Source of the DNA: Myxococcaceae bacterium
GTDB taxonomy: Bacteria > Myxococcota > Myxococcia > Myxococcales > Myxococcaceae
Assembly: GCA_022616315.1 (NCBI GenBank)
Contig: JAKEEX010000143.1
Span: 1 to 44,303 of the forward strand
Length of the DNA: 44,303 nt
Direction of reading: 5' to 3'
A program made the position numbers and the translations under genes. This document shows, piece by piece, positions 3,887-24,205 of the stretch (within the stretch, counting starts at the first letter, position 1; the number at the start of each line of letters is the position of its first letter). The notes below the pieces were generated by a model. It made no database searches and was not told the origin of the DNA. It saw only the letters and a list, made by a program, of their open reading frames with translations.

Positions 3887-4960
3887 TTAAGGCTGGGCCT
3901 CGCCTGCGTGGGCCCAGCCGAGACGCGTGAGGAGTCGCGCGTCGCGCCCCGGCCTCCAGACGAAGGCGTCCAGCAGGTAGTGTGTCGCCTGCGGGAGAGC
4001 AAGAAGAGGAACTAACAGGGCAAGTGCATCGTCCGCCAGCGTGACGCTGCCCTCCCCGAAGAGGAGGGGTCGCTCGTGCCAGACGAGCCGGTCCCAGAGG
4101 AGCTCCTCGAGGAAGGCGAGCACGAGGAGGAAGCCGAGGAAGCCCGGCAGCCCCAGGCGGAGCAGCGTGGACGCCCTGCCCTCCTCCGCGGCGCGCCCCC
4201 GTGCGTATCGCCAGAGGAGAACGAGGTAGGGGACGCCGTGGAGCGTGACGTTCATCACCGTGAAGGCGAGGTCGTCCCGCGCCAGGACGATGCCGCCGAA
4301 CCACGCACTCCAGGTGGCGGCGACGAGCAGCACCTTGCCCGGGTGGACGCCGCTGCCGGCGAGGAGGCGCCCGAGCTGGAGGGTGCACCAGGCGGCGAGG
4401 ATTGCCGCGTGTGCGGCGAGCGCGGCGGTGCCCATCCATGTGGGGAGGGGCGCGAAGTCACCCTCGACGAACCACCAGAAGGGTCGCGGGAGGTTCGCGT
4501 GCCACCAGACCGCAGGCCCGAGTGTCGCGGCGTAGATGGCGGCCCCATCCAGGCGGCGCTCCCACGCGGGGGTGCCCGCGCGGCGTCCGTAGAGGGCCAC
4601 CCAGCCGTACTGCTGGCGGATGAAGTGGGCGAGCGCGGCGTAGGCGAGCAGGCGCCAGAAGACGAGGGGGCCGTACAGGGACGCCACGATGCCCACCGCG
4701 AGGGCGAGGAGCGGGGTGCCCACGTAGAGGAGGGGGCGGCGGCGCAGCTCTTCCCCGTCCAGGTAGGTGCGGAAGAGGGTCGCCCAGACGTGCGCCACGT
4801 CGATGGCCAGGACGAACATCACCCAGGCCCAGAGCGGTGTCTCGCCGGTGGAGGTGAGCCACGGCGAAGCCCAGGCGAGCAGGCCCGAGGCGAGCGCGCT
4901 GCCCGCGAAGACGGCCGCGTCTGTCCTCGGGCCGAAGAGCCACGCCCGGTGCGTGGACAC
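3887..4960 (-). CDS. Polytopic inner-membrane protein of unknown function with four His-containing motifs
   Basis: GTG at 4960 preceded by AAGGAAG. About 8 hydrophobic segments by eye. His motifs are DVAHVWATLFRTY, AHFIRQQYGW, LHGVPYL and THYLLDAFVWR. It lies 21 nt after the upstream stop and 36 nt before the otsAB start, on the same strand. Confidence 0.7.
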   Translation of the reverse strand: MSTHRAWLFGPRTDAAVFAGSALASGLLAWASPWLTSTGETPLWAWVMFVLAIDVAHVWATLFRTYLDGEELRRRPLLYVGTPLLALAVGIVASLYGPLVFWRLLAYAALAHFIRQQYGWVALYGRRAGTPAWERRLDGAAIYAATLGPAVWWHANLPRPFWWFVEGDFAPLPTWMGTAALAAHAAILAAWCTLQLGRLLAGSGVHPGKVLLVAATWSAWFGGIVLARDDLAFTVMNVTLHGVPYLVLLWRYARGRAAEEGRASTLLRLGLPGFLGFLLVLAFLEELLWDRLVWHERPLLFGEGSVTLADDALALLVPLLALPQATHYLLDAFVWRPGRDARLLTRLGWAHAGEAQP

Positions 4961-5923: not shown

Positions 5924-6156
5924 CGCGGGGCCGCCGGAGCAGGTCGCGGGGTTCTGTGCCAGCGGGGGCCCGGACGCAAGCCTCGACTGTCAGTTTGCAC
6001 CCACACCGTCCCGTGACAGATGTGACGTCGGAAGCTTCGGCCGGGAGCCTGCGCGTTCGAGGGGCGCCGGTGCGTGGAACGAGCACGACACACCGCGCCT
6101 CGCCGGTGTATGGGAGCCTCGCCCGGAGACGGGTGGTTTCGCCCCGGACTCCAACC

Positions 6157-7050: not shown

Positions 7051-7852
7051 TGGCCGGGTCCACCTCCACGCTCACCGGGCAGTGGTCACTCCCCATCACC
7101 TTCGCGTGGATGGCCGCCCCCTTCACGAAGGGCATGGCCCCCGGCGAGGCGAGCACGTAGTCGATGCGCCAGCCCACGTTGCGCTCGCGCACGCCGAAGC
7201 GCTGGCTCCACCAGCTGTAGTGCCCCCCACGCTTCTCGAAGTGGCGGAACGTGTCCACCCAGCCGGCGTCGAGCAAGCGGGAGAACTCCGCGCGCTCCTC
7301 GGGGCGGAAGCCGCTCGTCTCCCGGTTGTCCTTCGGGCGCGCCAGGTCCAGCTCGGTGTGCGCGGTGTTGAAGTCCCCCATGACGAGGACGGGTGTCCCG
7401 TCGCGCAGCGGCGCCTCGAGCACCTCGAAGAGGCGGCGATAGAAGTCCAGCTTGAAGGGGATGCGGCTGTTGTCGCGCTCCTTGCCGTTGCCGTTGGGGA
7501 AGTAGCCGTTGACCAACAGGAGCTTCCCGAAGCGTGCACACTGCAGCCGCCCCTCCGCGTCGAAGGCCGGCACGTCGAGCATGGTGTCCACTGCGTCGGG
7601 TGCCTGACGGGAGTACAGCCCCACGCCGCTGTAGCCTGGACGCTCTGCGGGGGAGAAGTGCGCGTTCCACCCTTCCGGGGCACGCAGCTCCTCGGGGAGC
7701 TGCTCGGGCCGGGCCCGCACCTCCTGGACCGCCACCACGTCCGCCTTCGCTCCCTTCATCCACTTCAGGAAGCCCTTCTGGTGACAGGCCCTCAGGCCGT
7801 TCACGTTCCACGAGACGATTCTCACCCCGCATACTCTAGCTGCGTGCGCCAT
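7034..7852 (-). CDS. xthA: Exodeoxyribonuclease III (AP endonuclease family 1)
   Basis: ATG at 7852 gives 272 aa, beginning MAHAARVCGVRIVSWNVNGLRA. Contains ADVVAVQEVR, LVMGDFNTAH, WRIDYVL and SDHCPV, which are typical of XthA/ExoIII. The 3' end overlaps the convergent PAP2 gene by 17 nt. Confidence 0.9.
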   Translation of the reverse strand: MAHAARVCGVRIVSWNVNGLRACHQKGFLKWMKGAKADVVAVQEVRARPEQLPEELRAPEGWNAHFSPAERPGYSGVGLYSRQAPDAVDTMLDVPAFDAEGRLQCARFGKLLLVNGYFPNGNGKERDNSRIPFKLDFYRRLFEVLEAPLRDGTPVLVMGDFNTAHTELDLARPKDNRETSGFRPEERAEFSRLLDAGWVDTFRHFEKRGGHYSWWSQRFGVRERNVGWRIDYVLASPGAMPFVKGAAIHAKVMGSDHCPVSVEVDPAIRRSR

Positions 7853-7958
7853 CAGACGCTGGCCCCATCCCCGGAACGGATTCACGCGGGGCCTTTCCCA
7901 GGTCACCTTGCCTCCACTCTGGAGGTGGGGACGGTCAGCAAGTCCCCGTGGCTCAACC

Positions 7959-10781: not shown

Positions 10782-12106
10782 CGCAACGGATTGATGTGCT
10801 GTGTGAGCACTGAGTTCGTCAATGCACGCCCGCAGACGACGAGCAGCACGACCCCCATCAGGACCCACGGCAGCAGCTGTGCACGCGCGTCGAGGAATCG
10901 CCCGAGTCGTGGCCAGCGCCGCAGCGCCTCCTGCGCCGCGGGAATGGCCAGCCACGGGTAGACGGGGAACACGTACCGCGCTGCCCTCCGCGTCATGAGA
11001 GAGACGCCGAGCACCGCTGCTCCGCCCGCGAGCATCACGAGGCGCAGGCCCGTGCTCGCGGTGATGCGCTGACGCACAACCCCCTCACCCTGTCCCTCTC
11101 CCAGAGGGAGAGGGGAAGTTGGAGGGGAATCTGGAAGAGAGCTCGGATGGGAGGTGAGGGGGCGTGAGGGACGCACCAGCGCGACCAGCAGGAGGAGTGA
11201 CCCTGGAAGCGCGAAGTAGAGGAGATTGGCCGCGTAGTACGCCGGAGTGAGCAGCTTCTGCCAGAGGCCCGTCTCCTCGGCGCGCTCCACGTAGGAGAGC
11301 TGTGCGCCCACGTAGCCCGCGAAGAAGCTTTCACCCGTGTGTGCTGCGTACGCCAGCTCGTACAGGGCGGCGGTGAGCCCCACGGCCACGAGTGCCGCGA
11401 CGAAGAGCCACACCTCGCGCCATCTCGGGCGTTCTGCGAGCCACAGCGCGAACGCCGCGGGGAACAGGAGGAGCCCCAGGACACCCTTGACCGCGAACGC
11501 GGCCACCGCCCACGCCACGAAGCCCACGGAGAAACGCAGGGCCTCGCGGCGCCGCAGGAAGCACAGCAAGGCCGCGGTGGTGCACAGCGCCCACGCATTC
11601 TCATGGTTCCCGCGCGCCACGTACTGGATGCCGAGCGGTGACACCGCGTACAGGAACACCGCGCCCCACGCGGCCGCCTCACCGGCCAGGTGGCGCGCCA
11701 ATCGGAACAGCGCCCATAGCGCACCCAGGTGGAACGCGAGGTTGGCCAGAAGCATGCCGCGCGTGAAACCCAGCCGCCCCAGCGCCGCCGCGGGCCAGAA
11801 GAAGATGGCCAGGTGCTCCTGGAAGAGGCCCTGCTTCCAGCGCCCCGGCTGCCAGTGCGGCGCCAACCACTCGGCGAGCGGACGCGGCTCGAGGGTGCGG
11901 ACGATGTACTCGTAGAGCGTGGAGTCAGGGTCGCGCAGCGTGAAGCCCGTGCCGGCCAGGATGGCGTACGATACCATCAGCGTGGTGAGCCATCCCACGG
12001 CGAGAACCGCGCGTGAGGAGGACGACAGCAGACGTGGACGGGCTCGCGCCGTCTGCACGGTGACGTCGTCCACGGAGACGGTTCCCGAGGAGTGGTCGGG
12101 CGTCAT
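10778..12106 (-). CDS. GT-C fold membrane glycosyltransferase (GT39/GT83, ArnT/PMT-like)
   Basis: About 11 hydrophobic segments by eye. The first extracytoplasmic loop has the acidic motif LRDPDSTLYEYI, typical of ArnT/PMT-like enzymes. Its ATG at 12106 overlaps the upstream GT2 stop (ATGA). It carries an in-frame copy of the palindromic repeat. Confidence 0.65.
   Translation of the reverse strand: MTPDHSSGTVSVDDVTVQTARARPRLLSSSSRAVLAVGWLTTLMVSYAILAGTGFTLRDPDSTLYEYIVRTLEPRPLAEWLAPHWQPGRWKQGLFQEHLAIFFWPAAALGRLGFTRGMLLANLAFHLGALWALFRLARHLAGEAAAWGAVFLYAVSPLGIQYVARGNHENAWALCTTAALLCFLRRREALRFSVGFVAWAVAAFAVKGVLGLLLFPAAFALWLAERPRWREVWLFVAALVAVGLTAALYELAYAAHTGESFFAGYVGAQLSYVERAEETGLWQKLLTPAYYAANLLYFALPGSLLLLVALVRPSRPLTSHPSSLPDSPPTSPLPLGEGQGEGVVRQRITASTGLRLVMLAGGAAVLGVSLMTRRAARYVFPVYPWLAIPAAQEALRRWPRLGRFLDARAQLLPWVLMGVVLLVVCGRALTNSVLTQHINPLR
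11082..11116. repeat. Palindromic repeat copy B, inside the GT-C gene and in frame
   Basis: The 35 nt are identical to copy A (1628..1662). Read on the minus strand, it encodes SPLPLGEGQGEGV within the 10778..12106 product. Confidence 0.9.
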
Positions 12107-12930
12107 GCGGACGCTTCACCTGGCACGCGCGCACGCTCGGTTGCCGGCGCTCCCGAGCCCAGCTCCCACAGCAGCGCGTACTTTGCGAACGCGTGGAAGG
12201 CCAGAGCGGAGGCGACCGTCAGCCCTCCCATGCCGAAACGGAACAACCGTTTCGCGACATAGAACTTGAGGAACGCGCCGGCGGTGTGGAGGCACGCGCG
12301 GAGCATGGACGCACGGCGCCCGCGTGCGTGGAAGTGCCGGGCGCTGCTCTGGGCGTAGACGAGCTGCTTGCGGAGCAGGTGCGACACGGAGTCGTACGAG
12401 CGGTGATGCAGCCCGTGCGTGAGCCGGCCTGCCTTTCCCTCGTGGATGGCCGGAACGTGCACCCACTGCGAGTCCGCCCAGCGCACGCGGCCCTTCCGGA
12501 GCAGGCGCTTCTGCGAGGTCCAGAAGAACACCGGCCGCTCCCAGTGGTCCGGGAGCACGTTCTTCTGGGGGACGTGGTAGGCGTCGTGCCGGGCCCCGCG
12601 GCGCAAAACGTCGCGGACCTCCTCGCCCAGTCCGGGCATCGCCCTCTCGTCGGCGTCCACGATGAGGATCCACTCTCCACGCGTCGCCTCGGCGAGCGCC
12701 CGACGGTGCGAGGCGAACGTGTCGAGCTTCCGCTGGAAGGCCCGGACCTGCCCGCCCCGGGACTGCAGGTACTCCCATGTCCCGTCGGTGGAGAAGTCGT
12801 CCACGACGACGATCTCATCGCAGAAGTCGAGCGAGTCGAGGCATGCCTCCAGCGTGCCCATGCTGTCCTTCGTCATCACCGCCGCGCTGAGCAGGATGGC
12901 CGTGCTGCCGGTCGAGTCCATTGCGAGCAC
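12103..12930 (-). CDS. Family 2 glycosyltransferase (GT-A)
   Basis: The N-terminal Rossmann-like segment LSAAVMTKDSMGTLEACLDSLDFCDEIVVVDDFSTDGTWEYL and the acidic motif LIVDADE are typical of GT2. The start is ambiguous (GTG 12930 or ATG 12921). The stop overlaps the next gene's start. Confidence 0.8.
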   Translation of the reverse strand: MLAMDSTGSTAILLSAAVMTKDSMGTLEACLDSLDFCDEIVVVDDFSTDGTWEYLQSRGGQVRAFQRKLDTFASHRRALAEATRGEWILIVDADERAMPGLGEEVRDVLRRGARHDAYHVPQKNVLPDHWERPVFFWTSQKRLLRKGRVRWADSQWVHVPAIHEGKAGRLTHGLHHRSYDSVSHLLRKQLVYAQSSARHFHARGRRASMLRACLHTAGAFLKFYVAKRLFRFGMGGLTVASALAFHAFAKYALLWELGSGAPATERARVPGEASA

Positions 12931-13002: not shown

Positions 13003-14643
13003 TCACAGCCAGCTTTCCACCTTGCGTCCCAAGTCCGCCAGCGCTGACTCCGCCGCCCTGACTCCAAAGTGGTTGGCCTCCTCGAAGAGGGCAATCCCCC
13101 CGAGGTCCGTGTGGGCGAAGTGCACGGCCCCCACGGACGCTTGCGCCGCTCGCCGTGCCTCACCCCACAGGAGGCCCGGGGTGGGCCTCACCATGGCGTG
13201 CCCCCAGCGCATGACCTCGAGGCGCTCCGCGGTGTGCGCGAGCTCCGGGTGCGGCCGCAGGAGGTCCGCCATCACCAGCGCTTCCCACTCCTCGTAGCCT
13301 GCCGACAGCATGCGCGTGCGCCCGGCCCGTGGGTCCGTGTCCGCGAAGGGGTAGTACCAGGTGAGGACACACGTCCCATTGCGCGCCTGCCGCTCCTCCT
13401 GATGGCCCGCCACCACGTAGCCGAGGCTTCGGCTCTCGTGGAGGACGTTGTCCCACGCGAGGGGGAAGCCGCGTCCCTGCGGCGGTGCGGAGACGGTGAG
13501 GTTGGCCACGACCCAGGGTGCGTAGGTGAATGCCGAGAGCCACGCGGGCGGCGCCTTCCGCCAGGGGGCCAGCACACGGGCGGCCACGAAGCGCGGCCCG
13601 CAGAACACCACCTGGCGCGCCATGAGCCCCACCGGCGCGCCCGTCGCAGTGTCCACCGCGTGCACGCGGCAACCGCCGTCCATGGGTTCGAGCGTGTGGA
13701 CGAGCGTGGAGCGCAGCCACTGGCGTGGAGTCACGCTGCGCGCGAGCTGTGCCACGAGCCGTGCGTTGCCCTCGGGCCAGGAGAGGTAGCCCTCCGCGCG
13801 ACCGCCCGCGCCTTCCTGCCGCGCGGCGAAGTACCAGACTCCGGCCCAGGCGCTCGTCGATTCCGGCGTCGTGCCGAAGTCGTCGCGGCAGGCGTAGTCC
13901 ACGAGCCACTGGAGACGGCGGCTGGTGAAGCCCGCCTGTGCCATCCACTGCGCCATCGTCAGCAGGTCGAGCGCCGTCCACTCCCCGTCGTCGCTGGAAT
14001 GGGCGACCGGCACCGCGAAGGCCTTGCGTCCACGTGCGTCCCTGGCGGCGGCGAAGGCGGCCATGCGCGACTCGAAGCGTGCGAGCTGCGCGAGGTCCTC
14101 CGCGCTTGCACCTGCGCGGAGGTAGAGCCCTTCGTACCAGGCGCCCTTGAAGAACAGGCGTTCCTCGGGCTCTGAGATGAGGACGTGCTCGGCGAAGTGC
14201 GGTCGGCCTCGCGCGTCCACGCCTTCGACTGCGCCCAGCTCGTGGAGGAGGCGCATCACCGGGCCGGTGTCGTGGAGAGGGGTCGGAAGGTAATGCGCGC
14301 CCCAGGGGAAGGCGCCCACGTGGTTGCGACCTCCGCGCGCGGTGCCGCCTTCGTGTGCTTCGAGCTCGCACACGACGACGTCCTGAACTCCGGCCGCAGC
14401 GAGACGCCAGGCCGCGGAGAGCCCTGCGACGCCTGCGCCGACGATGGCGACGTCCACGGAGCGGAAGGGGCCTGTGTGCAGCGGGAGGCTGCCTTCGCGG
14501 AGCGCGTGCCCTGCGTGGACCGCGCGGTCCACGATGGCGCCGGGGACGGGGGAACGCGGCTGAGTGTCCTTGCACGCGGACTGGGCCACAGCCGCTCCGA
14601 GCACGCTTGCGATGAGCTCTCGGCGGGTGAGGCTCAGTTCCAC
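13003..14643 (-). CDS. Tat-signal FAD-dependent oxidoreductase, flavin amine-oxidase-like
   Basis: Proposed GTG at 14643 gives VELSLTRRELIASVLGAAVAQSAC, a twin-arginine-type signal with a possible lipidated Cys. The dinucleotide fold is VDVAIVGAGVAGLSAAWRLAAAG...VVCELEAHEGGTARGG. The listed ORF start at 14913 would overlap the upstream gene by 280 nt and was rejected. Confidence 0.75.
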   Translation of the reverse strand: MELSLTRRELIASVLGAAVAQSACKDTQPRSPVPGAIVDRAVHAGHALREGSLPLHTGPFRSVDVAIVGAGVAGLSAAWRLAAAGVQDVVVCELEAHEGGTARGGRNHVGAFPWGAHYLPTPLHDTGPVMRLLHELGAVEGVDARGRPHFAEHVLISEPEERLFFKGAWYEGLYLRAGASAEDLAQLARFESRMAAFAAARDARGRKAFAVPVAHSSDDGEWTALDLLTMAQWMAQAGFTSRRLQWLVDYACRDDFGTTPESTSAWAGVWYFAARQEGAGGRAEGYLSWPEGNARLVAQLARSVTPRQWLRSTLVHTLEPMDGGCRVHAVDTATGAPVGLMARQVVFCGPRFVAARVLAPWRKAPPAWLSAFTYAPWVVANLTVSAPPQGRGFPLAWDNVLHESRSLGYVVAGHQEERQARNGTCVLTWYYPFADTDPRAGRTRMLSAGYEEWEALVMADLLRPHPELAHTAERLEVMRWGHAMVRPTPGLLWGEARRAAQASVGAVHFAHTDLGGIALFEEANHFGVRAAESALADLGRKVESWL

Positions 14644-16130
14644 CGTCGCCACTCTTCCTCGTAGTAGTGCACCAGCACCTGGTTGTTGAGGCGGTTTACC
14701 TCCGCGGGGAGCGGCGACATATCCGCCGGGAAGAGCGTGAGCGTGGGGAGCAGCTCGCGCGAGAGGAAACGCAAGCCCTGTGGCAGCTCGCGCACGTGTG
14801 GGCGCTCCGTGTGGGCCGCGAGGATGAAGCCCCACTCGCCGAACGAAGGCACCAGCGCGTGGTAGGGCTCGGTCCAGAAGCCGGCTGCCTTCAACGTCGT
14901 GTCCACGCACCAATAGGAGCGGCGCGCAAACAGCGGCGAGGTGCTCTGGATGACGGCCACACCGTCTGGCGCGAGCCGCTTCTTGAGCAGCCCGTAGAAG
15001 CGCGTGGTGTAGAGCTTCCCGAGCGAGAAGTTGTTCGGGTCCGGGAAGTCCACCAGCACCACGTCGTACAGCCCCGTGTCCTCCGCGAGGAAGCGCAGCG
15101 CATCCTCGTTGCGCACCTCCACCCGCGCGTCCTTCAGGGAGTCACCGTTGAGCTCCGCGAGCTCCACATACCCCGTGGCCAGGGACGTGATGGCCGCATC
15201 CAGGTCCACCAGCGTCACCCGCTCCACCTCCGGGTAGCGCAGGGCCTCGCGCACCGCGAGCCCGTCCCCTCCCCCCAGCACCAGCACCCGCCGCACGCTC
15301 CCCGCGCGGAGGAAGGCCGGGTGCACCAGCGCCTCGTGGTAGCGATATTCGTCCACGCTGGTGAACTGCAGGTTGCCGTTGAGGAAGAGGCTGAAGCCGC
15401 GCGCCCCGCGCGTCATGACGATGCGCTGGTACGGCGAGGAGCGCGCGAAGACCACTTCGTCCGGGTACACCCCTTCCTCGCTCCAGGCCGTCATCCTGTC
15501 CGCGTAGCCGAAGCCCACGAGCAGCACCGCCACCACCACCACCGCCTTCACCCGCAGCCGCTCCACCGCAGGAAGCACCGGAGCGAGAAGCCACGTGCTC
15601 CACAGCCCCACCGCCGCGTTGAGGAGGCCGAAGAGCAGTGACGTGCGCACGAGGCCCAGGCGCGGCACCAGCAGGAGCGGAAACAGGAGGCTCGCCGCAA
15701 GCGCGCCCAGGTAGTCGAACGTCAGCACCTGGCTGACCAGCTCCTTGAAGCGCACCTGGTCCTTGAGGATGCGCAGGAGCAGGGGAATCTCGAGGCCCAC
15801 CAGCGTGCCCACGACGAGCACGCTTCCGTAGAGCACCACGCGGAAGGCATCGGTGAACGTGAAGGAGGCGAAGAGGAGCGGCGCGCACCCACCGCCCACC
15901 AACGCCACCGCCAGCTCCACCTCCACGAAGCGCTGGGCCAGCCCCCGCTCCACGAAGCGGCTCAGCCAGCTGCCCACCCCCATCGCGAAGAGGTAGACGC
16001 CGATGACGGTGGAGAACTGGGTGACGCTGTCCCCGAGGAGGTAGCTCGCGAGCGTGCTGGCGATGAGCTCGTAGACGAGCCCGCACGTGGCGATGACCAG
16101 GACGGAGACGAAGAGCAGGGAGCGGTTCAT
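14634..16130 (-). CDS. Membrane-fused polyamine aminopropyltransferase (spermidine synthase-like): 7 TM N-terminal domain plus SpeE-like catalytic domain
   Basis: ATG at 16130. Seven hydrophobic segments by eye in the first ~210 aa. These are followed by YQRIVMT...LFLNGNLQFTSVDEYRYHEALVHP, VLVLGGGDGLAVREAL, VTLVDLD and VVLVDFPDPNN, which match the SpeE family SAM/dcSAM and polyamine-site motifs. Confidence 0.85.
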   Translation of the reverse strand: MNRSLLFVSVLVIATCGLVYELIASTLASYLLGDSVTQFSTVIGVYLFAMGVGSWLSRFVERGLAQRFVEVELAVALVGGGCAPLLFASFTFTDAFRVVLYGSVLVVGTLVGLEIPLLLRILKDQVRFKELVSQVLTFDYLGALAASLLFPLLLVPRLGLVRTSLLFGLLNAAVGLWSTWLLAPVLPAVERLRVKAVVVVAVLLVGFGYADRMTAWSEEGVYPDEVVFARSSPYQRIVMTRGARGFSLFLNGNLQFTSVDEYRYHEALVHPAFLRAGSVRRVLVLGGGDGLAVREALRYPEVERVTLVDLDAAITSLATGYVELAELNGDSLKDARVEVRNEDALRFLAEDTGLYDVVLVDFPDPNNFSLGKLYTTRFYGLLKKRLAPDGVAVIQSTSPLFARRSYWCVDTTLKAAGFWTEPYHALVPSFGEWGFILAAHTERPHVRELPQGLRFLSRELLPTLTLFPADMSPLPAEVNRLNNQVLVHYYEEEWRRWN

Positions 16131-16146
16131 TTCACGGAGCGGAGAG

Positions 16147-16365
16147 TCAGGCGCCCACGGCGGCGGCGATGATGACCGCGAGCCCGAGGATGAAGCTGGC
16201 GATGACCACTGCCACCGCGACGTTCTGGTCCGCCTCGAGCTCCTTGTGGATGTCGAACGGAAGCAACTTGCGGATGACCCACAGGCCCACCGTGAACGAC
16301 AGGAGCCCCACCGCCGCGTAGGCGATGGAGTAGAGCACCCCTTCCCAGCTGAGGACCGCGAGCAT
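16147..16365 (-). CDS. DUF350-family small membrane protein (YjfL-like)
   Basis: ATG at 16365 with GGAGG 7 nt upstream. The product is 72 aa with two TM segments: MLAVLSWEGVLYSIAYAAVGLLSFTVGLWVIRKLLPFDIHKELEADQNVAVAVVIASFILGLAVIIAAAVGA, which is the DUF350 pattern. The longer listed ORF (to 16563) has an Arg-rich, non-coding-like N-terminus. Confidence 0.8.
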   Translation of the reverse strand: MLAVLSWEGVLYSIAYAAVGLLSFTVGLWVIRKLLPFDIHKELEADQNVAVAVVIASFILGLAVIIAAAVGA

Positions 16366-16529
16366 CACTTGCCTCCGTGTAGGCCACCCACCCACAGCCA
16401 CCCGCCTCCCGGTCCACGCCGCGCGTCCGCGGGCACGCTGCCGCGCTCCCTCGACGCGAACGGCTCGTAGCCGGTGAAGAGCATGGCTCCGTAGAGGAGC
16501 AGCAGAAGTCCACCCACCACTCTCGTCAC
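16365..16529 (-). CDS. Candidate unlisted 54-codon membrane micro-ORF between the DUF4178 and DUF350 genes
   Basis: The GTG at 16529 immediately follows the TAA stop of the upstream gene (16530-16532). Its TGA overlaps the DUF350 ATG by 1 nt (TGATG). The product is VTRVVGGLLLLLYGAMLFTGYEPFASRERGSVPADARRGPGGGWLWVGGLHGGK. 43 of 54 codons end in G/C. It is below the size cut-off of the ORF track. Confidence 0.35.
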   Translation of the reverse strand: MTRVVGGLLLLLYGAMLFTGYEPFASRERGSVPADARRGPGGGWLWVGGLHGGK

Positions 16530-18425
16530 TTAAGCACCTCCTCCGAACATGCTCTCCGCCCACCGCGCCGACTCGAAGGAGGAGGCCCGCATGGCGCTGA
16601 GCAGCGGCAACAGCGCGAGGAGCCCCCAGAAGACGAACAGCCAGAGGGCCCGCGGCCCTGCCATGGCGAGCACCACACCGTAGCTCCGGTCTCCAGGCGC
16701 GGAGAAGAAGGGCGTCGTCCGGAGCACGTAGCGCCCCGGCGGCACCGCGGACACGAAGGCCGTGGCCTTGCGGTCTCCCTCGCTCCAGGCGCCCTCCTCG
16801 TCGCGGCCCTGGTAGAAGGACAGCTCCTCGTAGAAGGTGTTCACCGCGCCGGTCTCCTCGTTCACGAGGTCGCCCTGCACCCCGAGCCAGTCGTTGCTGA
16901 CCGGGCTCGTGAGCTCCACGCGGAGGTTGCCGCGTCCAGACACCTCGAAGGGTGCGCTGAAGTGCATGGCCTCGGGCGAGCCGCCCTGCGCGTCCCGCGG
17001 CACCGCCACCTCCTCCGTGAGGAGCACCCCGCTCCCGCTCCGAAGGGAGAAGAGGAAGAACAGGAGGAGGCCCAGGCCCGCGTAGAGCAACGCCCAGCGC
17101 GCGTTCCGCCCGGCGCGCCCCTTCATGGGGTTCGGCTGGCTTGGGGCAATCCCGCGCGGGGGCGGCAAGGGCTCCTTCAGCCCGAAGGCCTTCCGCACCC
17201 CGTCCGGAGGAAGGTAGGTCCCGTGCGCGTACGTCACCTCCTCCGGGGTCCGGTCCTCACTCACGGAGTACGGTGGCGCCACGTACTCGGTGGCCTCCGC
17301 CGTCTCCCCCGCGCGTACCTCCCAGTAGAACTCCCCCACCACCGACTCCGTGACGGCGGTGACGGACTGGAAGGGACGGTAGCGGCGGCCCTGGTAGTGC
17401 GCGGACACGCCGTGCACGACCGTGACGTCGCCCGCGGCGATGGGCAGCAGGTGCGTCCAGTGCCCCTCGGAGCAGAGGAGGAAGGAGAAGCCCTGCGCCG
17501 GATGGAAGAGGAGGTACTCCTCCCACGGGTAGCGCACGCCCTCCACCGTGCAGCTGCGCACCATGAAGCCGATGCACGTCCACGAGGTGCCCTGCAGCAC
17601 GCCCTTCGCCCCCAGCGGGATTCGCGGCGGGTGCTCGGGCGGCTCGAGCGCCTGGAGGAAGGCGAGCTTCCCGTGGGAGGCGTCCAGCAGCGCGCCACAC
17701 CACTGGCAGGCCACGCGGCGCGTGCGGTCCGGGGCCTTGAGCTCGAGCGGGCCATTGCACTGCGTGCAGCGCGCCTGCAGAAGCTTCACCTCGCGGCGAG
17801 GCGGTTGAAGGACGTCCGTGGGGAAGCCCAGCTCCGGAAGCTGCACGCGCCGGCCGAAGAAGGCCTCCGCGCCCACGCCACGCACGCCGAAGTCCAGCGA
17901 GAGGAACTCCCCGTGCGAGCCGGTGGCGTCCACCGCCACACCCTCCGGCGTGCCGGAGACGTCCGAGGGCAGCTGGCCCGCCGCGGCCACGATGCGCGCG
18001 CGGCGCACCTCCTCCACCGTGAAGCGACGACCGCGAAGGCTGAGGCGCTCGCCGGGGCGGAGGCTTGCGAGTGACAGACCCGCCTCCTCCCCCGCGGGAA
18101 ACAACAGGTGGAGCGCCCCCTCGGACTCCGAGAGCCACGCGGTGCGTCCGTCGTCGAACTGGGCGTACCACTCGTCCCACGGGCCCGCGCCGTGGTCCTT
18201 CTGCACGTGTCCGACGAGCCGGAAGTCGCTGCCGCCGTGCCGTCCCGACAGGCCCAGCCGCAGGGGCGTCTGTGTGTCCACCAGCGCCGAGACACGCCCC
18301 CGGGCGGTGAGGTGCTCGCCCTCACGCGCCACGACCGTCTGGCAGTGCGCGCAGACCACCACCCGCGCGCTCCCGGCCGTGAAGGCGAGGGACGCCCCAC
18401 ACGAGGGACAGCGGCCCTCCGTCAT
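16530..18425 (-). CDS. Duplicated zinc-ribbon + DUF4178 domain protein with two C-terminal TM segments
   Basis: ATG at 18425 with a GGGGAGGGG element upstream. There are two CxxC...CxxC ribbons (CPSCG...CAHCQ and CTQCN...CQWCG). Each is followed by a DUF4178-like segment (GPWDEWYAQFDDGRTAWLSE and YPWEEYLLFHPAQGFSFLL). The TM segments are ALLYAGLGLLLFFLFSL and ALWLFVFWGLLALLPLL. Confidence 0.75.
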   Translation of the reverse strand: MTEGRCPSCGASLAFTAGSARVVVCAHCQTVVAREGEHLTARGRVSALVDTQTPLRLGLSGRHGGSDFRLVGHVQKDHGAGPWDEWYAQFDDGRTAWLSESEGALHLLFPAGEEAGLSLASLRPGERLSLRGRRFTVEEVRRARIVAAAGQLPSDVSGTPEGVAVDATGSHGEFLSLDFGVRGVGAEAFFGRRVQLPELGFPTDVLQPPRREVKLLQARCTQCNGPLELKAPDRTRRVACQWCGALLDASHGKLAFLQALEPPEHPPRIPLGAKGVLQGTSWTCIGFMVRSCTVEGVRYPWEEYLLFHPAQGFSFLLCSEGHWTHLLPIAAGDVTVVHGVSAHYQGRRYRPFQSVTAVTESVVGEFYWEVRAGETAEATEYVAPPYSVSEDRTPEEVTYAHGTYLPPDGVRKAFGLKEPLPPPRGIAPSQPNPMKGRAGRNARWALLYAGLGLLLFFLFSLRSGSGVLLTEEVAVPRDAQGGSPEAMHFSAPFEVSGRGNLRVELTSPVSNDWLGVQGDLVNEETGAVNTFYEELSFYQGRDEEGAWSEGDRKATAFVSAVPPGRYVLRTTPFFSAPGDRSYGVVLAMAGPRALWLFVFWGLLALLPLLSAMRASSFESARWAESMFGGGA

Positions 18426-18564
18426 GCCCCTCCCCTTTTCGCGCTCAAGGCGCGCACGTCCTTAGCACGCAGAACATCCCACTCGTAGCACATCGGAATG
18501 TTGCACCTTGGTCGTTGAGGAGAGGGGGGTCACCCGGGTAGCCTGAACGCCACTCCGCTGGCCC

Positions 18565-20370
18565 ATGCCTCCCTCGTCCGACTCCACCACCGTCCGCCGC
18601 CCGCGGCTCTCCAGCAACGTCCCCGGCTACCGCCTCGAGAAGCTCGTGGGGCGCGGGGGAATGGGCGAGGTGCATCGCGCGGTGCAGCTGTCGCTCGGGC
18701 GCACGGTGGCGGTGAAGATTCTCGCCACGGAGCTCGCGCAGGAGCCGAGCTTCGTCAGCCGCTTCCGCAAGGAGGCCGCAGCGCTCGCGGCGCTCTCCCA
18801 CCCCAACGTCGTCGCGGTGGTGGACCAGGGGGACGCGGACGGCGTGCCCTACCTCGTCATGGAGTTCGTGGACGGGCCCAGCCTGCGCGAGGTGATGCGA
18901 GCCCCCCTCTTCGACACCCAGAGCGCGCTGCGCATCTTCCACGAGGTGGCGCGTGCCATCGCCTACGCACACGGGCGCGGCATCATCCACAGGGACCTGA
19001 AGCCCGAGAACATCCTCTTCGCCGAGCAGGCGGGGGGAATCGCCAAGGTGAGCGACTTCGGGCTCGCCGGCTTCCTCGAGGAGGGCAGCGGTCGCTTCGC
19101 CCTGACACAGACGCACATGTCCATGGGGACGGTGGCGTACATGGCGCCCGAGCAGCGCCTGGACGCCAAGAACGTGGATGGGCGCGCGGACATCTACGCG
19201 CTGGGCGTGGTGCTCTACGAGATGGTCACGGGCGAGGTGCCCATGGGCACCTTCGACCCGCCCTCGCAGCGCCGCGCGGGGCTGGACCCGCGCCTGGACG
19301 GCATCATCGCGCGCTGCCTCAAGCCCATCCCCGAAGAGCGCTTCCCCTCGGTGTCAGCCCTCCTCGCGGAGATGGAGCCGCTGCTCCCGGCAGACACGCG
19401 CAGCAACCTTCCCCCGCGCTCCACCCGCGTGCAGCGGGCCCGTGTCGCGGCGGTCGCCGTCGGGCGGATGGTGGGACGTGCCGCCGCGGCCCTCCTCGTC
19501 CTCGCGGCTGTCGGCGTGCTGGGCCTCGACATGCTGCGCGCCCGGAATGCCAAGGTGCCTGCGCCCGAGGCCGCGGTGCTGGGTGGACCCCTCGGCTCCC
19601 CCATGGCGCTCGGCGCCCAGGGGCGGATGGAGTCGGGAGGCCGCTGGCGCCAGGTGTCGCTCGGTGCGGGACCGGACCTCGTGCCGCTACTCGCCTCCGG
19701 CCGCGCGGTGCGCCAGGAGGGCGAGGCGCTCGTCTTCGACGCCCCGGTGGACGAGGCGCGTGCCGGCCGCGTGGTGGTGGACACGCTGGAGCCCGAGAGC
19801 GAGTGGCTCGAGTGGGTGGCCGTGGCCCGTGCCGCGACGCCACCGGAGGACTGGATGGCCACCACGCGCCGGGTGGTCTTCGGCCCCCGTCCGCCGGCCC
19901 AGGTGGGGCTGCTCCTGATGGGGGACCCGGGGCGCTTCGTGGCGCTCGTCGTCTCCGAGCACGAGGGCGAGGCCCGCCTCGAGTGGGCGCTGGGGGAGCG
20001 CCGCGGCGCCCAGCTCATCCCCGTCTCCATGTCCGCACAGCAGCCGCTGCGGATGGAGATGGAGATCTCGACCGAGGGAGAGCTGCGCGCCTTCCTCGGT
20101 GCGGAGCGCAACCGCCGTCCGGTGGGCGAGCCCTTGCAGCTCGGTGAGGACTGGCAGCGCCTGTTCGGCCGCCTGCCCCAGGCCGCGCTCGGCTGTCTGG
20201 AGGGCGAGTGCCGCTTCGACGGGCTCCGCTTCTCGGTGCGCCGGCCCGGGGCTCCCGTGGTTCCCGCCGTGGCGGTGGAGAAGGCCGCTCCCACACCCGC
20301 GGTCACCAAGCGTCCTGCGCCTCCCCCGGCGCCAGCGCCCAAGCGTACGCCCCCCCGCAAGCGTCGATGA
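18565..20370 (+). CDS. Hanks-type Ser/Thr protein kinase with one TM segment and an uncharacterised C-terminal domain
   Basis: Kinase motifs present: GRGGMGEV (G-loop), VAVKIL, HRDLKPENILF, DFGLA, and MAPEQ (the APE motif). The TM segment is AAALLVLAAVGVLGL. The tail is Pro-rich and basic. Confidence 0.9.
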   Translation: MPPSSDSTTVRRPRLSSNVPGYRLEKLVGRGGMGEVHRAVQLSLGRTVAVKILATELAQEPSFVSRFRKEAAALAALSHPNVVAVVDQGDADGVPYLVMEFVDGPSLREVMRAPLFDTQSALRIFHEVARAIAYAHGRGIIHRDLKPENILFAEQAGGIAKVSDFGLAGFLEEGSGRFALTQTHMSMGTVAYMAPEQRLDAKNVDGRADIYALGVVLYEMVTGEVPMGTFDPPSQRRAGLDPRLDGIIARCLKPIPEERFPSVSALLAEMEPLLPADTRSNLPPRSTRVQRARVAAVAVGRMVGRAAAALLVLAAVGVLGLDMLRARNAKVPAPEAAVLGGPLGSPMALGAQGRMESGGRWRQVSLGAGPDLVPLLASGRAVRQEGEALVFDAPVDEARAGRVVVDTLEPESEWLEWVAVARAATPPEDWMATTRRVVFGPRPPAQVGLLLMGDPGRFVALVVSEHEGEARLEWALGERRGAQLIPVSMSAQQPLRMEMEISTEGELRAFLGAERNRRPVGEPLQLGEDWQRLFGRLPQAALGCLEGECRFDGLRFSVRRPGAPVVPAVAVEKAAPTPAVTKRPAPPPAPAPKRTPPRKRR

Positions 20371-20443
20371 GTGGTGAAGCGGGGCTGCCGAATAGGCGCC
20401 CCGGGTGGCTGTTGAGGGCGGTCTGAACTATCCAGGGCCCCTC

Positions 20444-23400
20444 ATGCGCACCCGACTGGCAACCGTCCCCCTGCTGACCCTGCTGCTCCTGTCCGGCTGC
20501 GCCCATGGCCCGGCCTCGCCTACCCAGGTGCTGGAGGATGCCGCACGACGCGGGGTGCGCGGTGACGCACGCTCCACCGCGCTCGCGGGCTTCCACGCGC
20601 TGCTCGTGGAGGGCAAGCCCGGGGAGGCACAGTCGCTCTTCGACGCGGCGCTCGCGAAGGACGGCGCGGACGCCTACGCGCTGTGGGGACAGCACCTGAT
20701 GGCGCGCCGGCGGGCGCGTCCGGAGCTGGCGCTTGAGGCGGCGCTCACGCTGGTGGAGAAGGCCCCTGCGCATCCATTGAGCGCGCCGGCCGCGCGCTAC
20801 GTGCTGGACTGGGCGGGGCAGTCCTCGGTGGGCGATGACGCGCTGCTCGCGCGCGTGCCCCGGGCCCTCGGTGGGACGCGTGGAGACACCGCACAGCTCC
20901 TCCGCGCCTCGCTCGCCGCCATCCACGAGGCGCGCGGTGAGGAGCCTGCGTCGGCGGCGGACCTCGCGGCCCTCGGTGTGCCACGCGCCTTCACCGTGGT
21001 GGGCCCGCTGTCCGCCTACGAGTTGCTGGAGTACGACGCGCCGCTCGAGGCGGAGAAGACGGGCTCGCTCGCGGGCGCCTTCCAGGGCCCCTACGGTCCG
21101 GTGCACCCGCGCACCCTTCCCTTTCCGGATGGCCGCTTGAGCCTCGCGCACGAGGGCGCGCCGGGTGACGTGTACCTCGTCGCGGTGGACGTGGAGGTGC
21201 CCGAGGGTGGCACGTACGTGCTGCGCACGCTCACGCCCGCGGCCCACAAGGTGTACCTGGACGGAACGAAGGTGGTGGAGCGCCGGCCCTTCGCCCGCGC
21301 CGAGTCGTCCGTGTCCTCGCGCGGCGTGGACCTGTCCGCCGGCCGGCACCGCGTGCTCGTGAAGATGGTGCGCGGGGACCGCAGCGGCGTGCTGACGCTG
21401 GCGCTGATGCGGGCCGACGGGCGGCCCGCGCGTCTCACGCTCACGCCCGCCAGCGGCCCGGCGCCGCGCTGGAGCGGTGTGGGGCTCTCGGACGCGCCGC
21501 TCGTGTACCCGGAAGCTTCGGACCTCTACCGGGCGCTCCTGCCCGAGGCCGGAGACGCCCTGGCGCGCGTGCTCGCCGCGCGGGACGGCATGGGCCGTGA
21601 CCGTGACGGGGCCAAGCGCCTGCTGGCGCCGCTGGAGCCGGTGCTGACCTCACCCGCCTTCCTCGTGCTGCGCGCGGAGGTGGCCATGGGGGACCGGACC
21701 GTGCCCATCAAGGTGGCCCAGGGGCGCATCACGCGGGACCTGGAGGCCGCCGTCTCGAAGGACCCGGGCGAGGTGGCCGCCCACATGGCGCGTGCCCTCC
21801 TCGCGCTGGAGGCGGAGCGTCCGCTCGACGCGGCGGCGTCCCTCGAAGCGGCGCGCAAGGAGAGCAAGACGCCCGGGGCACCGGTCCTGATGACGCAGGC
21901 GCGGGTGGCGCTGGCGCTGGAGGTCGCGGCGCAGGCGGACGCGCGTGCGCGCGAGGCGCTCGAGGCCATGCCGGGCCTCTGCGAGGCAGCGGGGCTGCGC
22001 TACGACATCGCACGCCGTCGCGATGCGCTCGCGGAGGCAGAGGCGCTCCTGACCGGACCGCTCGCGCGCTGCCCGGGTGCGCTGGCCCGGACCGCCGAGC
22101 ACGCACGCCTGCGCGGCCGGACGGACCAGGCGGTGGCGGCGCTGCGGAAGCTCGCCGAGCGCGAGCCCACCTCGGTGGCGACGGCCGTCCAGCTCTCCCA
22201 GCTGCTCTCCGGCCTGGGCCGCCACGACGAGGCGGCGCGCGTGCTCGAGGGGATGCGCGCCTTCTGGCCGCGCAACGCGGGCGTGCTCAAGCGCCTGGCG
22301 GACGCGCGGGAGCTCGCGGGGGCCCTCGCGGAGGCGCTGGCGTTGCGCGAGGAGGCGCTGAGGCTGGACGGGACCGACCTGGCCCTGCGTCGCATCGTGG
22401 AGCGCGCGCGGACCGGCAAGGAGCTCCTGGCGGACGTGGCCATCGACGCGAAGGCAGCCATCGCGGCCTACGAGGCGAACCGCGGCAGCGAGGATGCGGC
22501 GGCGGTCTTCGTCCTGGACGCGGGCGCGGTGCGCGTCTACCCGGACGGCACGCAGATCAACCGCATCCACACCATCCAGAAGGTGCTGCAGCAGAGCGGC
22601 GTGGACGAGGTGGCGGAGGCGAGCCTCCCCCCGGGTGCGCAGGTGCTGGCGCTGCGCACGCTCAAGGCGGACGGGCGCGTGCTCGAGCCGGAGGTCATCG
22701 AGGGCAAGGACTCGGTGAGCCTGCCGGGCGTGCAGGTGGGTGACTACGTGCAGACGGAGTACCTGCTGGTGGAGGGCCCACGCGCTCCCGGCCAGCCGGG
22801 CTTCGCGGCCTCGCCCTTCTACTTCCAGATTGCGCGGCAGCCGAACGCCTGGACGACGTACACCGTCATCGCGCCGCGCGAGCTCGGGATGCAGGTGGAC
22901 GCGCACAACGTGAAGGCCGCGGCCGTGCGGCGCGACGGAGAGCTGGACGTCTTCGTGCACGAGCAGCGGCACGTGCCGCCCTACATCCCCGAGCCGGACG
23001 GTCCCCCTTCCGGGAACGAGTACCTGCCCTTCGTGCAGGTGGGTGCGGGCGCGCAGGGACTGGAGTCGCTGGTGCGCGTGTACTCGGACGCGTTCCTGGA
23101 GAACGGCGCCCTCACCTTCGAGCTGGAGCGCTTCGCGCGCGAGGCCGCAGGGGACAGGAGGGGCGTCGAGGCGGTGCAGGCCGTGTACGAGGCGGTGTCG
23201 CGGCGGATGACGGGGCGTGACGGGGGGCTGACGCAGCCCGCGGCGGCCTCGCTCGCCACCGAGCGCGGCAGCAGGCTGTGGGTGATGAAGGCGGCGCTCG
23301 AGGCGGTGGGTGTGCCCACGCGCCTGGCGCTGGTGCGCACCTTCCACACGGACCCGGCCGAGTACCGCTTCCCCAATGCGGCGCTGCTCACCTACGTGGC

Positions 23401-24205
23401 GCTGCGCGCCGAGGTGCCGGGGCATGGGCCCGTGTGGCTGGACCCGGCCGTGCGCTTCGCACCCTTCGGCGAGCTGCCCGAGGCGGCCTCGGGCCAGGAG
23501 GCCTACCTGATGCCGGAGCCCGGGCGCGCGCTGGAGAAGGTGCGCACGCCGGAGCCGTCCACGAAGGAGGGCAAGCAGGTGACGCTGAAGCTGAAGCTCG
23601 ACGAGGACGGAACCCTCAGCGGGACGGGCGTGGAGTTCTTCCGTGGCTTCGAGGCGGCGCAGCTGGCCGAGGCGCTGGAGTCCATGGCGCCGGACAAGCG
23701 CAAGCAGGCCGTGGAGCAGAACCTCTCGCGCTACTTCGGCGGGGCGGAGCTGTCCTCGCTCGAGGTGGACATGAAGCGCGAGGTGGGTGGCACGGTGACG
23801 CTGCGCTATGGGCTGAAGGCGCCACGCGCCGCGCACCTGGAGGGTGAGGGCCGCATGGTCCTGTCTCCCGTCACGTTCCCGGCCGCGCTGGGCCGCCGCT
23901 TCGTCTCCGCGGGCAAGCGCAGCACACCGCTCTTCGTGGAGGGCGTCGAGGAGTCGTCGACGCGGGTGACGCTGGAGCTTCCGCAGGGGTGGAAGCTGTC
24001 GTCGCTGGTGCCGCCGATGTCCGAGAAGACGCCCTTCGGCGACTTCCGCCGTGCGGAGAAGCTCGAGGGCAACGTCCTCACCATCGACGAGGCCTACCGG
24101 CTGGAGCGGGGACGCGTGAGCCCGGAGGCCTACGCCGGCTTCACGCACTTCGCGGGCAACCTGGACCTCCTGCAGACACGGGACTTCACGCTGGTGAAGC
24201 AGTAG
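20444..24205 (+). CDS. Large lipoprotein: TPR-like helical N-terminal half plus DUF3857/transglutaminase-like C-terminal half lacking the catalytic Cys and His
   Basis: ATG at 20444 gives MRTRLATVPLLTLLLLSGCAHG, with the lipobox LSGC. The C-terminal half aligns by eye with the 1..1614 product. There, GDCKDKASL corresponds to ERGSRLWVM and FNHAILYV to PNAALLTYV. Confidence 0.75.
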   Translation: MRTRLATVPLLTLLLLSGCAHGPASPTQVLEDAARRGVRGDARSTALAGFHALLVEGKPGEAQSLFDAALAKDGADAYALWGQHLMARRRARPELALEAALTLVEKAPAHPLSAPAARYVLDWAGQSSVGDDALLARVPRALGGTRGDTAQLLRASLAAIHEARGEEPASAADLAALGVPRAFTVVGPLSAYELLEYDAPLEAEKTGSLAGAFQGPYGPVHPRTLPFPDGRLSLAHEGAPGDVYLVAVDVEVPEGGTYVLRTLTPAAHKVYLDGTKVVERRPFARAESSVSSRGVDLSAGRHRVLVKMVRGDRSGVLTLALMRADGRPARLTLTPASGPAPRWSGVGLSDAPLVYPEASDLYRALLPEAGDALARVLAARDGMGRDRDGAKRLLAPLEPVLTSPAFLVLRAEVAMGDRTVPIKVAQGRITRDLEAAVSKDPGEVAAHMARALLALEAERPLDAAASLEAARKESKTPGAPVLMTQARVALALEVAAQADARAREALEAMPGLCEAAGLRYDIARRRDALAEAEALLTGPLARCPGALARTAEHARLRGRTDQAVAALRKLAEREPTSVATAVQLSQLLSGLGRHDEAARVLEGMRAFWPRNAGVLKRLADARELAGALAEALALREEALRLDGTDLALRRIVERARTGKELLADVAIDAKAAIAAYEANRGSEDAAAVFVLDAGAVRVYPDGTQINRIHTIQKVLQQSGVDEVAEASLPPGAQVLALRTLKADGRVLEPEVIEGKDSVSLPGVQVGDYVQTEYLLVEGPRAPGQPGFAASPFYFQIARQPNAWTTYTVIAPRELGMQVDAHNVKAAAVRRDGELDVFVHEQRHVPPYIPEPDGPPSGNEYLPFVQVGAGAQGLESLVRVYSDAFLENGALTFELERFAREAAGDRRGVEAVQAVYEAVSRRMTGRDGGLTQPAAASLATERGSRLWVMKAALEAVGVPTRLALVRTFHTDPAEYRFPNAALLTYVALRAEVPGHGPVWLDPAVRFAPFGELPEAASGQEAYLMPEPGRALEKVRTPEPSTKEGKQVTLKLKLDEDGTLSGTGVEFFRGFEAAQLAEALESMAPDKRKQAVEQNLSRYFGGAELSSLEVDMKREVGGTVTLRYGLKAPRAAHLEGEGRMVLSPVTFPAALGRRFVSAGKRSTPLFVEGVEESSTRVTLELPQGWKLSSLVPPMSEKTPFGDFRRAEKLEGNVLTIDEAYRLERGRVSPEAYAGFTHFAGNLDLLQTRDFTLVKQ

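Follow-up and report, generated by a model that had tools for sequence, protein, structure and literature searches.

The stretch of DNA analyzed here, referred to as the window, comprises 44,303 nucleotides of a Myxococcaceae bacterium (GCA_022616315.1, contig JAKEEX010000143.1, positions 1 to 44,303; G+C content of ca. 72%) and carries five co-directional open reading frames (ORFs) on the minus strand between positions 13003 and 18425. These encode, in the direction of reading, a DUF4178 protein (gene A), a microprotein (gene b), a DUF350 protein (gene c), an aminopropyltransferase fused to a domain of seven transmembrane (TM) helices (7TM-aminopropyltransferase; gene D), and a flavin oxidase (gene E); the labels F and G are used for speD and for a gene encoding a His-rich membrane protein, respectively. 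The same five gene calls, including the 54-aa ORF of gene b, are present in a public record of the same sequence (GCA_022615785.1, contig JAKEFY010000105.1). In a coding scan filtered for a G+C content at third codon positions (GC3) of ≥ 0.82 and a length of at least 100 codons, codon-position G+C backed A, D, and the long ORF containing c, while E fell below the GC3 filter and b below the length limit, so that E and b are regarded as genes on the basis of homology and the public gene calls rather than of codon-position G+C. All four protein families named in the original prediction for this locus (i.e., a prediction made from the sequence without database searches) were recovered in profile hidden Markov model searches against Pfam and NCBIfam, and its ORF coordinates and four gene junctions, read directly from the sequence, turned out to be exact.

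At these junctions, the TAA stop codon of A (16532–16530) is directly followed by the GTG start codon of b at 16529 (0-nt gap), and the TGA stop codon of b (16367–16365) shares its A with the ATG start codon of c (16365–16363), yielding a 1-nt overlap (TGATG). Further downstream, the stop codon of c (16149–16147) and the ATG of D at 16130 are separated by 16 nt, and the stop codon of D (14636–14634) and the GTG of E at 14643 give a 10-nt overlap. A strong Shine-Dalgarno sequence (AAGGGGAGGGG) precedes the ATG of A at 18425, and a Shine-Dalgarno-like stretch (GAGGAAGAG) lies upstream of the GTG of E at 14643; the public gene call starts E at an alternative GTG at 14652. Judging from this spacing, the five genes are probably transcribed as a single mRNA and translationally coupled.

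Table 1. Genes and features of the operon in the window (positions of the whole stretch).
Feature	Position	Strand	Description	Basis or remark
Intergenic region	18426..18564	.	139 bp between the divergent gene A and Ser/Thr kinase gene	Presumed promoter region; place of speD in most relatives
Gene A	16530..18425	-	631 aa, DUF4178 protein	Pfam DUF4178, AlphaFold2 model
Gene b	16365..16529	-	54 aa, N-terminal TM helix, tail ending in GGK-stop	Homologues, public gene call
Gene c	16147..16365	-	72 aa, two TM helices	Pfam PF03994, single DUF350 repeat
Gene D	14634..16130	-	498 aa, 7-helix membrane domain and aminopropyltransferase of the spermidine synthase (SpdSyn) fold	NCBIfam PRK03612, AlphaFold2
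Gene E	13003..14643	-	546 aa, flavin amine-oxidase superfamily	Pfam; twin-arginine signal LTRRELI, hydrophobic region, Cys (AQSAC)
Gene G	3887..4960	-	357 aa, ca. 10 TM helices	37–68% identity to ORFs directly after the oxidase in many phyla

Conservation of the locus was examined with an alignment of six oxidases, which was searched against one genome per species and yielded at least 597 confirmed relatives among the species-representative genomes. The best 80 of these loci were taken for locus comparison, and stem from Myxococcota, Acidobacteriota, Planctomycetota, Elusimicrobiota, Bacteroidota, Nitrospirota, and Alpha-, Beta-, and Gammaproteobacteria, next to a few metagenome-assembled genomes with other labels. 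Iterative profile searches (jackhmmer in the case of b) of six-frame ORFs then revealed A in 67, b in 52, c in 66, D in 72, and speD in 52 of a total of 86 loci. Gene order was scored where a minimum of 4.5 kb of sequence was available upstream of the oxidase, as was the case in 61 of the genome-scan loci. A, c, and D were found upstream of E on the same strand in 52 of them (Myxococcota, Acidobacteriota, Planctomycetota, Gemmatimonadota, Proteobacteria, and others), D directly adjoined E in 48, and speD was located upstream in 38. The commonest architectures were F-A-b-c-D-E and F-A-b-c-D-E-G, and the canonical form of the operon is thus speD – DUF4178 – microprotein – DUF350 – 7TM-aminopropyltransferase – Tat flavin oxidase (– His-rich membrane protein), with Tat denoting twin-arginine translocation. 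The operon occurs in at least eight bacterial phyla in near-identical order, and since it recurs across phyla, the arrangement is far beyond chance. The comparison of gene neighborhoods suggested along with the original prediction therefore came out clearly in favor of co-conservation; as to the boundaries drawn at the time, the five genes stood, and two usual members (speD and G) had been missed.

Individual relatives illustrate this architecture. Stigmatella carries the same genes in the same order, preceded by a gene for a class 1b S-adenosylmethionine (AdoMet) decarboxylase (i.e., speD). In tblastn searches of plasmids and chromids with the window proteins, the gene set was recovered in regions of Gemmatirosa, Novosphingobium, Ralstonia, and Burkholderia, each of which holds the DUF4178 protein and the oxidase together; deposited annotation was available for Novosphingobium and Ralstonia, the Gemmatirosa and Burkholderia records being unannotated. 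The Novosphingobium genes are ordered as SPFH, DUF4178 (two genes), a 48-aa hypothetical protein, DUF350, polyamine aminopropyltransferase, FAD (flavin adenine dinucleotide) oxidoreductase, and speD, and the Ralstonia operon is split into two divergent units. On the Ralstonia solanacearum megaplasmid (locus 7462–12057), a five-gene ATP-binding cassette transporter of the branched-chain-amino-acid type separates the synthase–oxidase pair from a DUF350–SPFH–DUF4178–microprotein–speD unit. In 14 loci, an SPFH-SHOCT gene is located upstream of the operon, and the module is thereby linked to membrane-organizing proteins, as in the study of Ravi et al. (2024). Finally, the operon found in BNCN01000002.1, an assembly labeled 'Comamonas sp. 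KCTC 72670', is 65–73% identical to myxobacterial copies and follows the myxobacterial gene order, which suggests that this assembly may be mislabeled or contaminated.

The microprotein encoded by b constitutes a real conserved family that always ends in Lys, and that is newly reported here. Although neither Pfam nor NCBIfam contained a match for it, b is 63–65% identical between the window and Stigmatella, and each of its homologues in the above-mentioned 52 loci is located directly after A. The C-terminal residue is Lys in all 52 homologues, as part of a GGK terminus in 45 of them, and 15 more loci have a small, unalignable ORF after A with a hydrophobic helix at its N-terminus and HK or GK at its C-terminus. 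For comparison, 3.5% of similarly sized ORFs in the same DNA end in Lys, but the b sequences are related to each other and a formal probability cannot be attached to this difference; what matters is that the terminal Lys persisted after the rest of the peptide had diverged. In the split operons of Ralstonia and Burkholderia, b stays with A and speD. Its orientation in the membrane as judged from charge is ambiguous.

Both neighbors of b also encode membrane proteins. In the product of A, the DUF4178 model (PF13785) matched two stretches (109.7 bits vs. a gathering cut-off of 25; E-value of 1.6e-31), and an AlphaFold2 model (predicted local distance difference test (pLDDT) score of 83.7) displayed the two zinc-ribbon plus DUF4178 units and the two TM segments that had been proposed from the sequence. 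More precisely, the duplicated zinc-ribbon–DUF4178 unit is followed by a TM helix (433–462), a well-predicted beta-sandwich of ca. 125 aa, a second TM helix (593–623), and a short conserved tail (F617, E618, R621, and W622); the CxxC pairs and the tail motif are invariant in the family. The model is compatible with a membrane-spanning protein of which the zinc-ribbon/DUF4178 units would be cytoplasmic and the beta-sandwich periplasmic. Foldseek searches with A returned weak and generic beta-sandwich matches (collagen-binding/PPC-like; TM-score of ca. 0.1 on the query), and no fold assignment for DUF4178 was drawn from such generic matches. The product of c matched the DUF350/YjfL model (PF03994; 49.4 bits vs. 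a gathering cut-off of 26; E-value of 6.3e-13) across just positions 3–65 of 133, and therefore corresponds to a single repeat with two TM helices.

The product of D matched the Pfam Spermine_synth model (1.7e-34) and, over residues 3–497, the NCBIfam polyamine aminopropyltransferase model NF002956/PRK03612 (674.1 bits vs. a cut-off of 472), and it also passed the NCBIfam 'fused MFS/spermidine synthase' model (42 bits vs. a cut-off of 40). Its AlphaFold2 model (pLDDT of 83) comprises seven TM helices, in agreement with the approximate number predicted originally, followed by a linker helix and a SpdSyn fold. The best Foldseek matches were the Thermus triamine/agmatine aminopropyltransferase (SpeE; 1UIR/3ANX), then Pyrobaculum SpeE (7XIF) and thermospermine synthase (6BQ6), with 1JQ3 also being listed. 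D shares with these soluble aminopropyltransferases the fold (TM-score of 0.73–0.78 on the target), ca. 30% identity, and all catalytic motifs, but differs from them by its membrane domain; in terms of fold, its closest relatives are aminopropyltransferases of broad specificity. The catalytic and dcAdoMet (decarboxylated AdoMet)-binding motifs YQ, YHE, GGGDG, and D361-F-P-D364-P, together with the acidic ribose ligand, are invariant in 69 D orthologues, as are the individual residues Y234, Q235, Y264, H265, E266, D289, D311, D343, D361, and D364, while position 309 is Asp in 68 of them. In canonical aminopropyltransferases, the central motif reads D-S-T/S-D-P, vs. D-F-P-D-P in D.

The same orthologues also share invariant charged or polar residues within the membrane domain (E21, D34, Q38, E114, R120, D139, and Y140), indicating that this domain does more than anchor the enzyme; given that the acidic ones are predicted to be buried, the domain resembles a conduit for cations more than a plain anchor. 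Averaged over these orthologues, the number of Lys and Arg residues per loop amounts to 1.0, 0.0, 3.1, 0.7, 3.9, 1.8, and 3.5 from the N-terminus onward, and to 1.0 after the seventh helix, corresponding to 11.5 on one side of the membrane vs. 2.5–3.5 on the other. With seven helices and the positive-inside rule, the N-terminus would be located inside and the catalytic domain outside. The catalytic domain of D is thus predicted to be periplasmic, i.e., on the same side as E and the beta-sandwich of A. The helix count, the charge bias that predicts a periplasmic catalytic domain, and the invariant acidic residues of the TM helices are new here.

The assignment of E to the flavin amine-oxidase superfamily stems from the NAD_binding_8 model (45.9 bits vs. 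a cut-off of 21.9; 6.8e-12) and from a marginal match to Amino_oxidase (PF01593; 25.5 bits vs. a gathering cut-off of 19.8; 1e-5) spanning residues 72–533 (model positions 1–441). Of the sequence matches in the PDB, only putrescine oxidase extended beyond the FAD motif, aligning over residues 63–363; Pseudomonas SpdH was also among the matches. With flavin amine oxidases such as putrescine oxidase (2YG3), polyamine, spermine, and monoamine oxidases, and SpdH (7D9F), E thus shares the N-terminal FAD-binding motif at a very low similarity (E-values of 1e-5 to 1e-9), and it differs from them by its own invariant motifs (GAHYLP, CRDDYG, SAWAG, WPEGN, WDNV, and GYVVATHQ) and by a putative Tat-lipoprotein signal.

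This signal reads LTRRELIASVLGAAVA in the window. Six distant orthologues all contain the twin arginine in their N-termini (TRRELI, TRRQVL, TRRSFL, GRRTFI, and DRRTFI), and of 80 evaluable orthologues across all loci, 79 have the RR motif, the exception being cut by a contig end. The concern that the RR segment might lie upstream of the true start codon, which had been put forward together with the proposal of an exported oxidase, is thereby removed, and the segment belongs to the enzyme. Moreover, a canonical lipobox Cys (e.g., in LAAC) follows the RR motif at a distance of 15–25 residues in at least 59 of the 80 orthologues; in the AQSAC box of the window the Cys is conserved and the Q at position –3 is atypical. 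Throughout the family, E is therefore predicted to be a Tat-dependent and mostly lipid-anchored periplasmic enzyme.

Unbiased clustering of the remaining ORFs around these loci uncovered a further family of ca. 360–380 aa with ca. 10 TM helices, G, which occurs in 28 of the 70 genome-scan loci that extend far enough downstream (31 loci overall, counting the window), usually directly downstream of E. It has no relatives in profile searches of Pfam, NCBIfam, or the PDB, no internal repeat was seen when its two halves were compared with hhalign (probability of 4%), and it forms 1090 clusters in a library of 1.84 billion proteins. Its invariant residues include H57, H112, H241, H327, D54, D331, R115, Q116, Q117, E285, and E286. 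In rare cases G is joined to an M1 peptidase or to LptD in one long 'fusion'; these seem to be products of merged gene calls and were set aside as uninformative. G is the usual seventh gene of the operon, and in the window inserted genes have displaced it by ca. 8 kb to the downstream side. Indeed, E and G are separated in the window by a GT2, a PMT_2, a TonB-dependent receptor, an endonuclease/exonuclease/phosphatase (EEP)-family, a PAP2, and an unknown gene, vs. only an EEP and a DUF6184 gene in the closest long-contig relative (L088), so that most of this block is regarded as an insertion.

Several other genes of this block and its surroundings were noted. The GT2 (275 aa) and PMT_2/ArnT-like (442 aa) genes (10778–12930, minus strand) overlap by 4 nt and begin ca. 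80 nt after the oxidase stop codon, without a detectable terminator between that stop codon and the GT2 gene. They were nevertheless rejected as operon members because they are absent at that position in Stigmatella, Corallococcus, and L088, which points to a lineage-specific insertion of envelope glycosylation genes. The EEP gene (7037–8164, minus strand; 13996–15078 in L088) lies between the oxidase and G in these two loci and not in other lineages. An ORF of 335 aa with high GC3 (4985–5989, minus strand) is located immediately upstream of G, and had no match in Pfam, NCBIfam, or PADLOC, nor a tblastn match in 85 related loci. Directly downstream of G lies a fused trehalose-6-phosphate synthase/phosphatase gene (1673–3886, minus strand), and the same adjacency is found in Corallococcus (L006 and L009) and in L088.

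On the upstream side, a tblastn search of the window with Stigmatella SpeD as the query gave no speD at 1e-3. L088 lacks the gene too, and both the window and L088 have a divergent Ser/Thr kinase gene in its usual place. This Ser/Thr protein kinase gene (18565–20370, plus strand; Pfam) is followed by a gene for a 1266-aa TPR/DUF3857 protein (20405–24205, plus strand), and the pair also flanks the operon in L088. A Ser/Thr kinase gene is near the operon in 22 loci, but since its position varies and the phyla concerned are rich in kinases, it was rejected as an operon member. No other polyamine gene and no PspA, CesT/Tir, or SPFH gene was found by Pfam among the other long, high-GC3 ORFs of the window. 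An aldehyde is the expected product of an amine oxidase, and an aldehyde dehydrogenase gene is present at 42773–44302 (minus strand), at a distance of ca. 25 kb from the operon that gives no evidence of linkage. Screening with PADLOC did not lead to an anti-phage defense assignment, the matches being restricted to a generic methyltransferase fold (mad2) and the FAD motif.

The module is not a new discovery, since this gene association was already known from Ravi et al. (2024; mSystems, PMC11237479), who described operons joining PspA–CesT/Tir, a 7TM-SpdSyn-like protein, YjfL/DUF350, a lipoprotein, and DUF4178 (e.g., Shewanella AAN56744–AAN56747), who proposed for such systems a role in monitoring polyamines, or the aminopropylation of other substrates, and who credited the linkage to AdoMet decarboxylase (AdoMetDC) to Li et al. 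(2019). The window shares with these operons the DUF4178 and DUF350 proteins and the SpdSyn-like domain fused to an N-terminal 7TM, and the SPFH-SHOCT, speD, and oxidase genes of the 14 loci mentioned above match their description. Unlike them, however, the window holds no PspA, CesT/Tir, SPFH, or Ctha_1186 lipoprotein gene among its scanned ORFs, and thus carries neither the PspA + CesT/Tir dyad nor the band-7 gene of the phage shock protein-linked polyamine operon of Ravi et al. (2024), and its DUF350 protein is the 2-TM half instead of the 8-TM or 4-TM form. Neither the microprotein nor the Tat signal nor gene G is mentioned in the polyamine-module passages of that paper. Likewise, the clusters of AdoMetDC, membrane-fused SpdSyn-like, and DUF350 genes of Li et al. 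(2019) resemble the locus in that D passes the fused models and its relatives carry a class 1b speD, and differ from the window by their speD. The parallel with E. coli yjfIJKLMC that was originally drawn agrees with the description by Ravi et al. (2024): there, the DUF350 membrane protein YjfL is encoded beside a polyamine-related enzyme and a membrane-stress protein, but the enzyme is an ATP-grasp ligase of the glutathionylspermidine-synthetase type instead of an aminopropyltransferase, and DUF4178, the oxidase, and such a microprotein are lacking. The locus in the window is thus a slightly reduced member of a known but uncharacterized kind, for which the lack of an assigned function that was part of the original prediction still holds; what is new is the microprotein family, the predicted topology of D, and its invariant acidic TM residues.

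As to what the operon does, we propose with moderate confidence that it carries out a decarboxylated S-adenosylmethionine (dcAdoMet)-dependent aminopropylation of a non-putrescine acceptor at the membrane, followed by flavin-dependent oxidation in the periplasm, with the aid of three small or scaffold membrane proteins. In such a scheme, dcAdoMet would be made in the cytoplasm by the SpeD of the operon in relatives, and by a SpeD encoded elsewhere in the case of the window. It would then serve as donor for the membrane-fused D, in which the catalytic residues of the family are all kept, and D would aminopropylate an amine-bearing acceptor at the cytoplasmic membrane that is presumably not simply putrescine. 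Subsequently, the Tat-exported and lipid-anchored E would oxidize a C–N bond of the product on the periplasmic side of the membrane. The products of A, b (with its terminal Lys), and c might form a complex in the membrane that partners these enzymes as a scaffold, regulator, or acceptor. The most attractive candidates for the acceptor are the terminal Lys of the microprotein and an amine lipid, and the pathway may contribute to modification or maintenance of the envelope. In organisms with clusters of AdoMetDC, a membrane-fused SpdSyn-like protein, and DUF350, the decarboxylase is reportedly active and spermidine absent, and the fusion is said to fail in complementing an E. coli speE mutant.

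A number of observations weigh against this proposal. First, a periplasmic dcAdoMet-dependent domain, as predicted for D, is at odds with donor synthesis by a cytoplasmic SpeD, unless dcAdoMet is exported or conducted by the 7-helix domain, and we know of no precedent for such a periplasmic domain. Moreover, with speD being absent from the window, the supply of the donor at this locus is an assumption. The substrate class of E is uncertain as well, since its match to Amino_oxidase is weak (25.5 bits) and it resembles putrescine oxidase alone beyond the FAD motif; as far as its sequence goes, E could act on a lipid or on another C–N or C–C bond. Furthermore, a locus scan with the sigma-70 consensus, which was uninformative, detected no sigma-70-like promoter or terminator, and the literature searched contained no paper reporting a function for any of these genes.

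The acceptor could be the microprotein itself, in which case D would aminopropylate the C-terminal Lys of b and the oxidase would process or release the adduct. This specific form of a microprotein-borne polyamine is in our view unlikely, even though the terminal Lys is found in every b homologue, including those in which the peptide has diverged beyond alignment, and b always adjoins A and remains with A and speD where the operon is split. Aminopropyltransferases use an unprotonated primary amine as the nucleophile, which fits with a Lys acceptor, and hypusine and the lysines of silaffins provide analogues of peptide-linked polyamines. However, the membrane orientation of b is ambiguous, its terminal Lys might just as well be an attachment site, as the Lys of Braun's lipoprotein is, or a charge anchor, and to our knowledge no bacterial aminopropyltransferase acts on a protein lysine.

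Similarly improbable is a modification of lipid head groups in the manner of MprF, with phosphatidylethanolamine or an ornithine lipid being aminopropylated by D, flipped by its TM domain, and remodeled by E and G. The fusion of the synthase to a conserved polytopic domain, the membrane partners, the lipoprotein nature of the oxidase, and the frequent SPFH neighbors are consistent with this, and the His/Asp/Glu-rich site that the membrane helices of G seem to harbor would be typical of lipid-modifying enzymes. On the other hand, the TM domain of D is unlike MprF or any solved flippase (Foldseek yielded matches to the SpdSyn domain alone), and the odd helix count and charge bias place its catalytic domain and that of MprF on opposite sides of the membrane.

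If the predicted topology of D is followed to its consequence, all of the chemistry might take place outside the cytoplasm and on a peptide, with the 7-helix domain exporting dcAdoMet, D modifying the terminal Lys of b, and E and G oxidizing the adduct, which we regard as quite unlikely. Least credible, and very unlikely as such, is an ordinary membrane polyamine metabolism in which D makes cell-surface spermidine or a longer polyamine (cf. Pseudomonas PA4773–PA4774) that E degrades or recycles like SpdH, because, despite the complete catalytic motifs of D, its nearest folds and NCBIfam name (both those of polyamine aminopropyltransferases), and putrescine oxidase as best full-length PDB match of E with SpdH also listed, four conserved accessory membrane proteins would be superfluous for simple polyamine synthesis, spermidine is reportedly absent where this fusion occurs and an E. 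coli speE mutant is said not to be rescued by it, and a futile cycle would arise if the synthase and the oxidase shared one free polyamine as product and substrate.

Irrespective of the acceptor, this operon spends S-adenosylmethionine on an unassigned product in many genomes of at least eight phyla. It has been flagged from two sides, i.e., by the polyamine field as a sign of an AdoMet decarboxylase role outside polyamine synthesis and by the envelope-stress field as a PspA/SPFH partner, and it may have a role in envelope stress. The present analysis adds the full gene set (with the Lys-terminated microprotein and G), the near-universal Tat signal of the oxidase, the question of membrane sidedness, and the clue of the conserved lysine. 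If the chemistry did occur on the microprotein outside the cytoplasm, it would amount to a bacterial protein-borne polyamine modification, and would answer what the 'polyamine-independent role' of AdoMet decarboxylase is.

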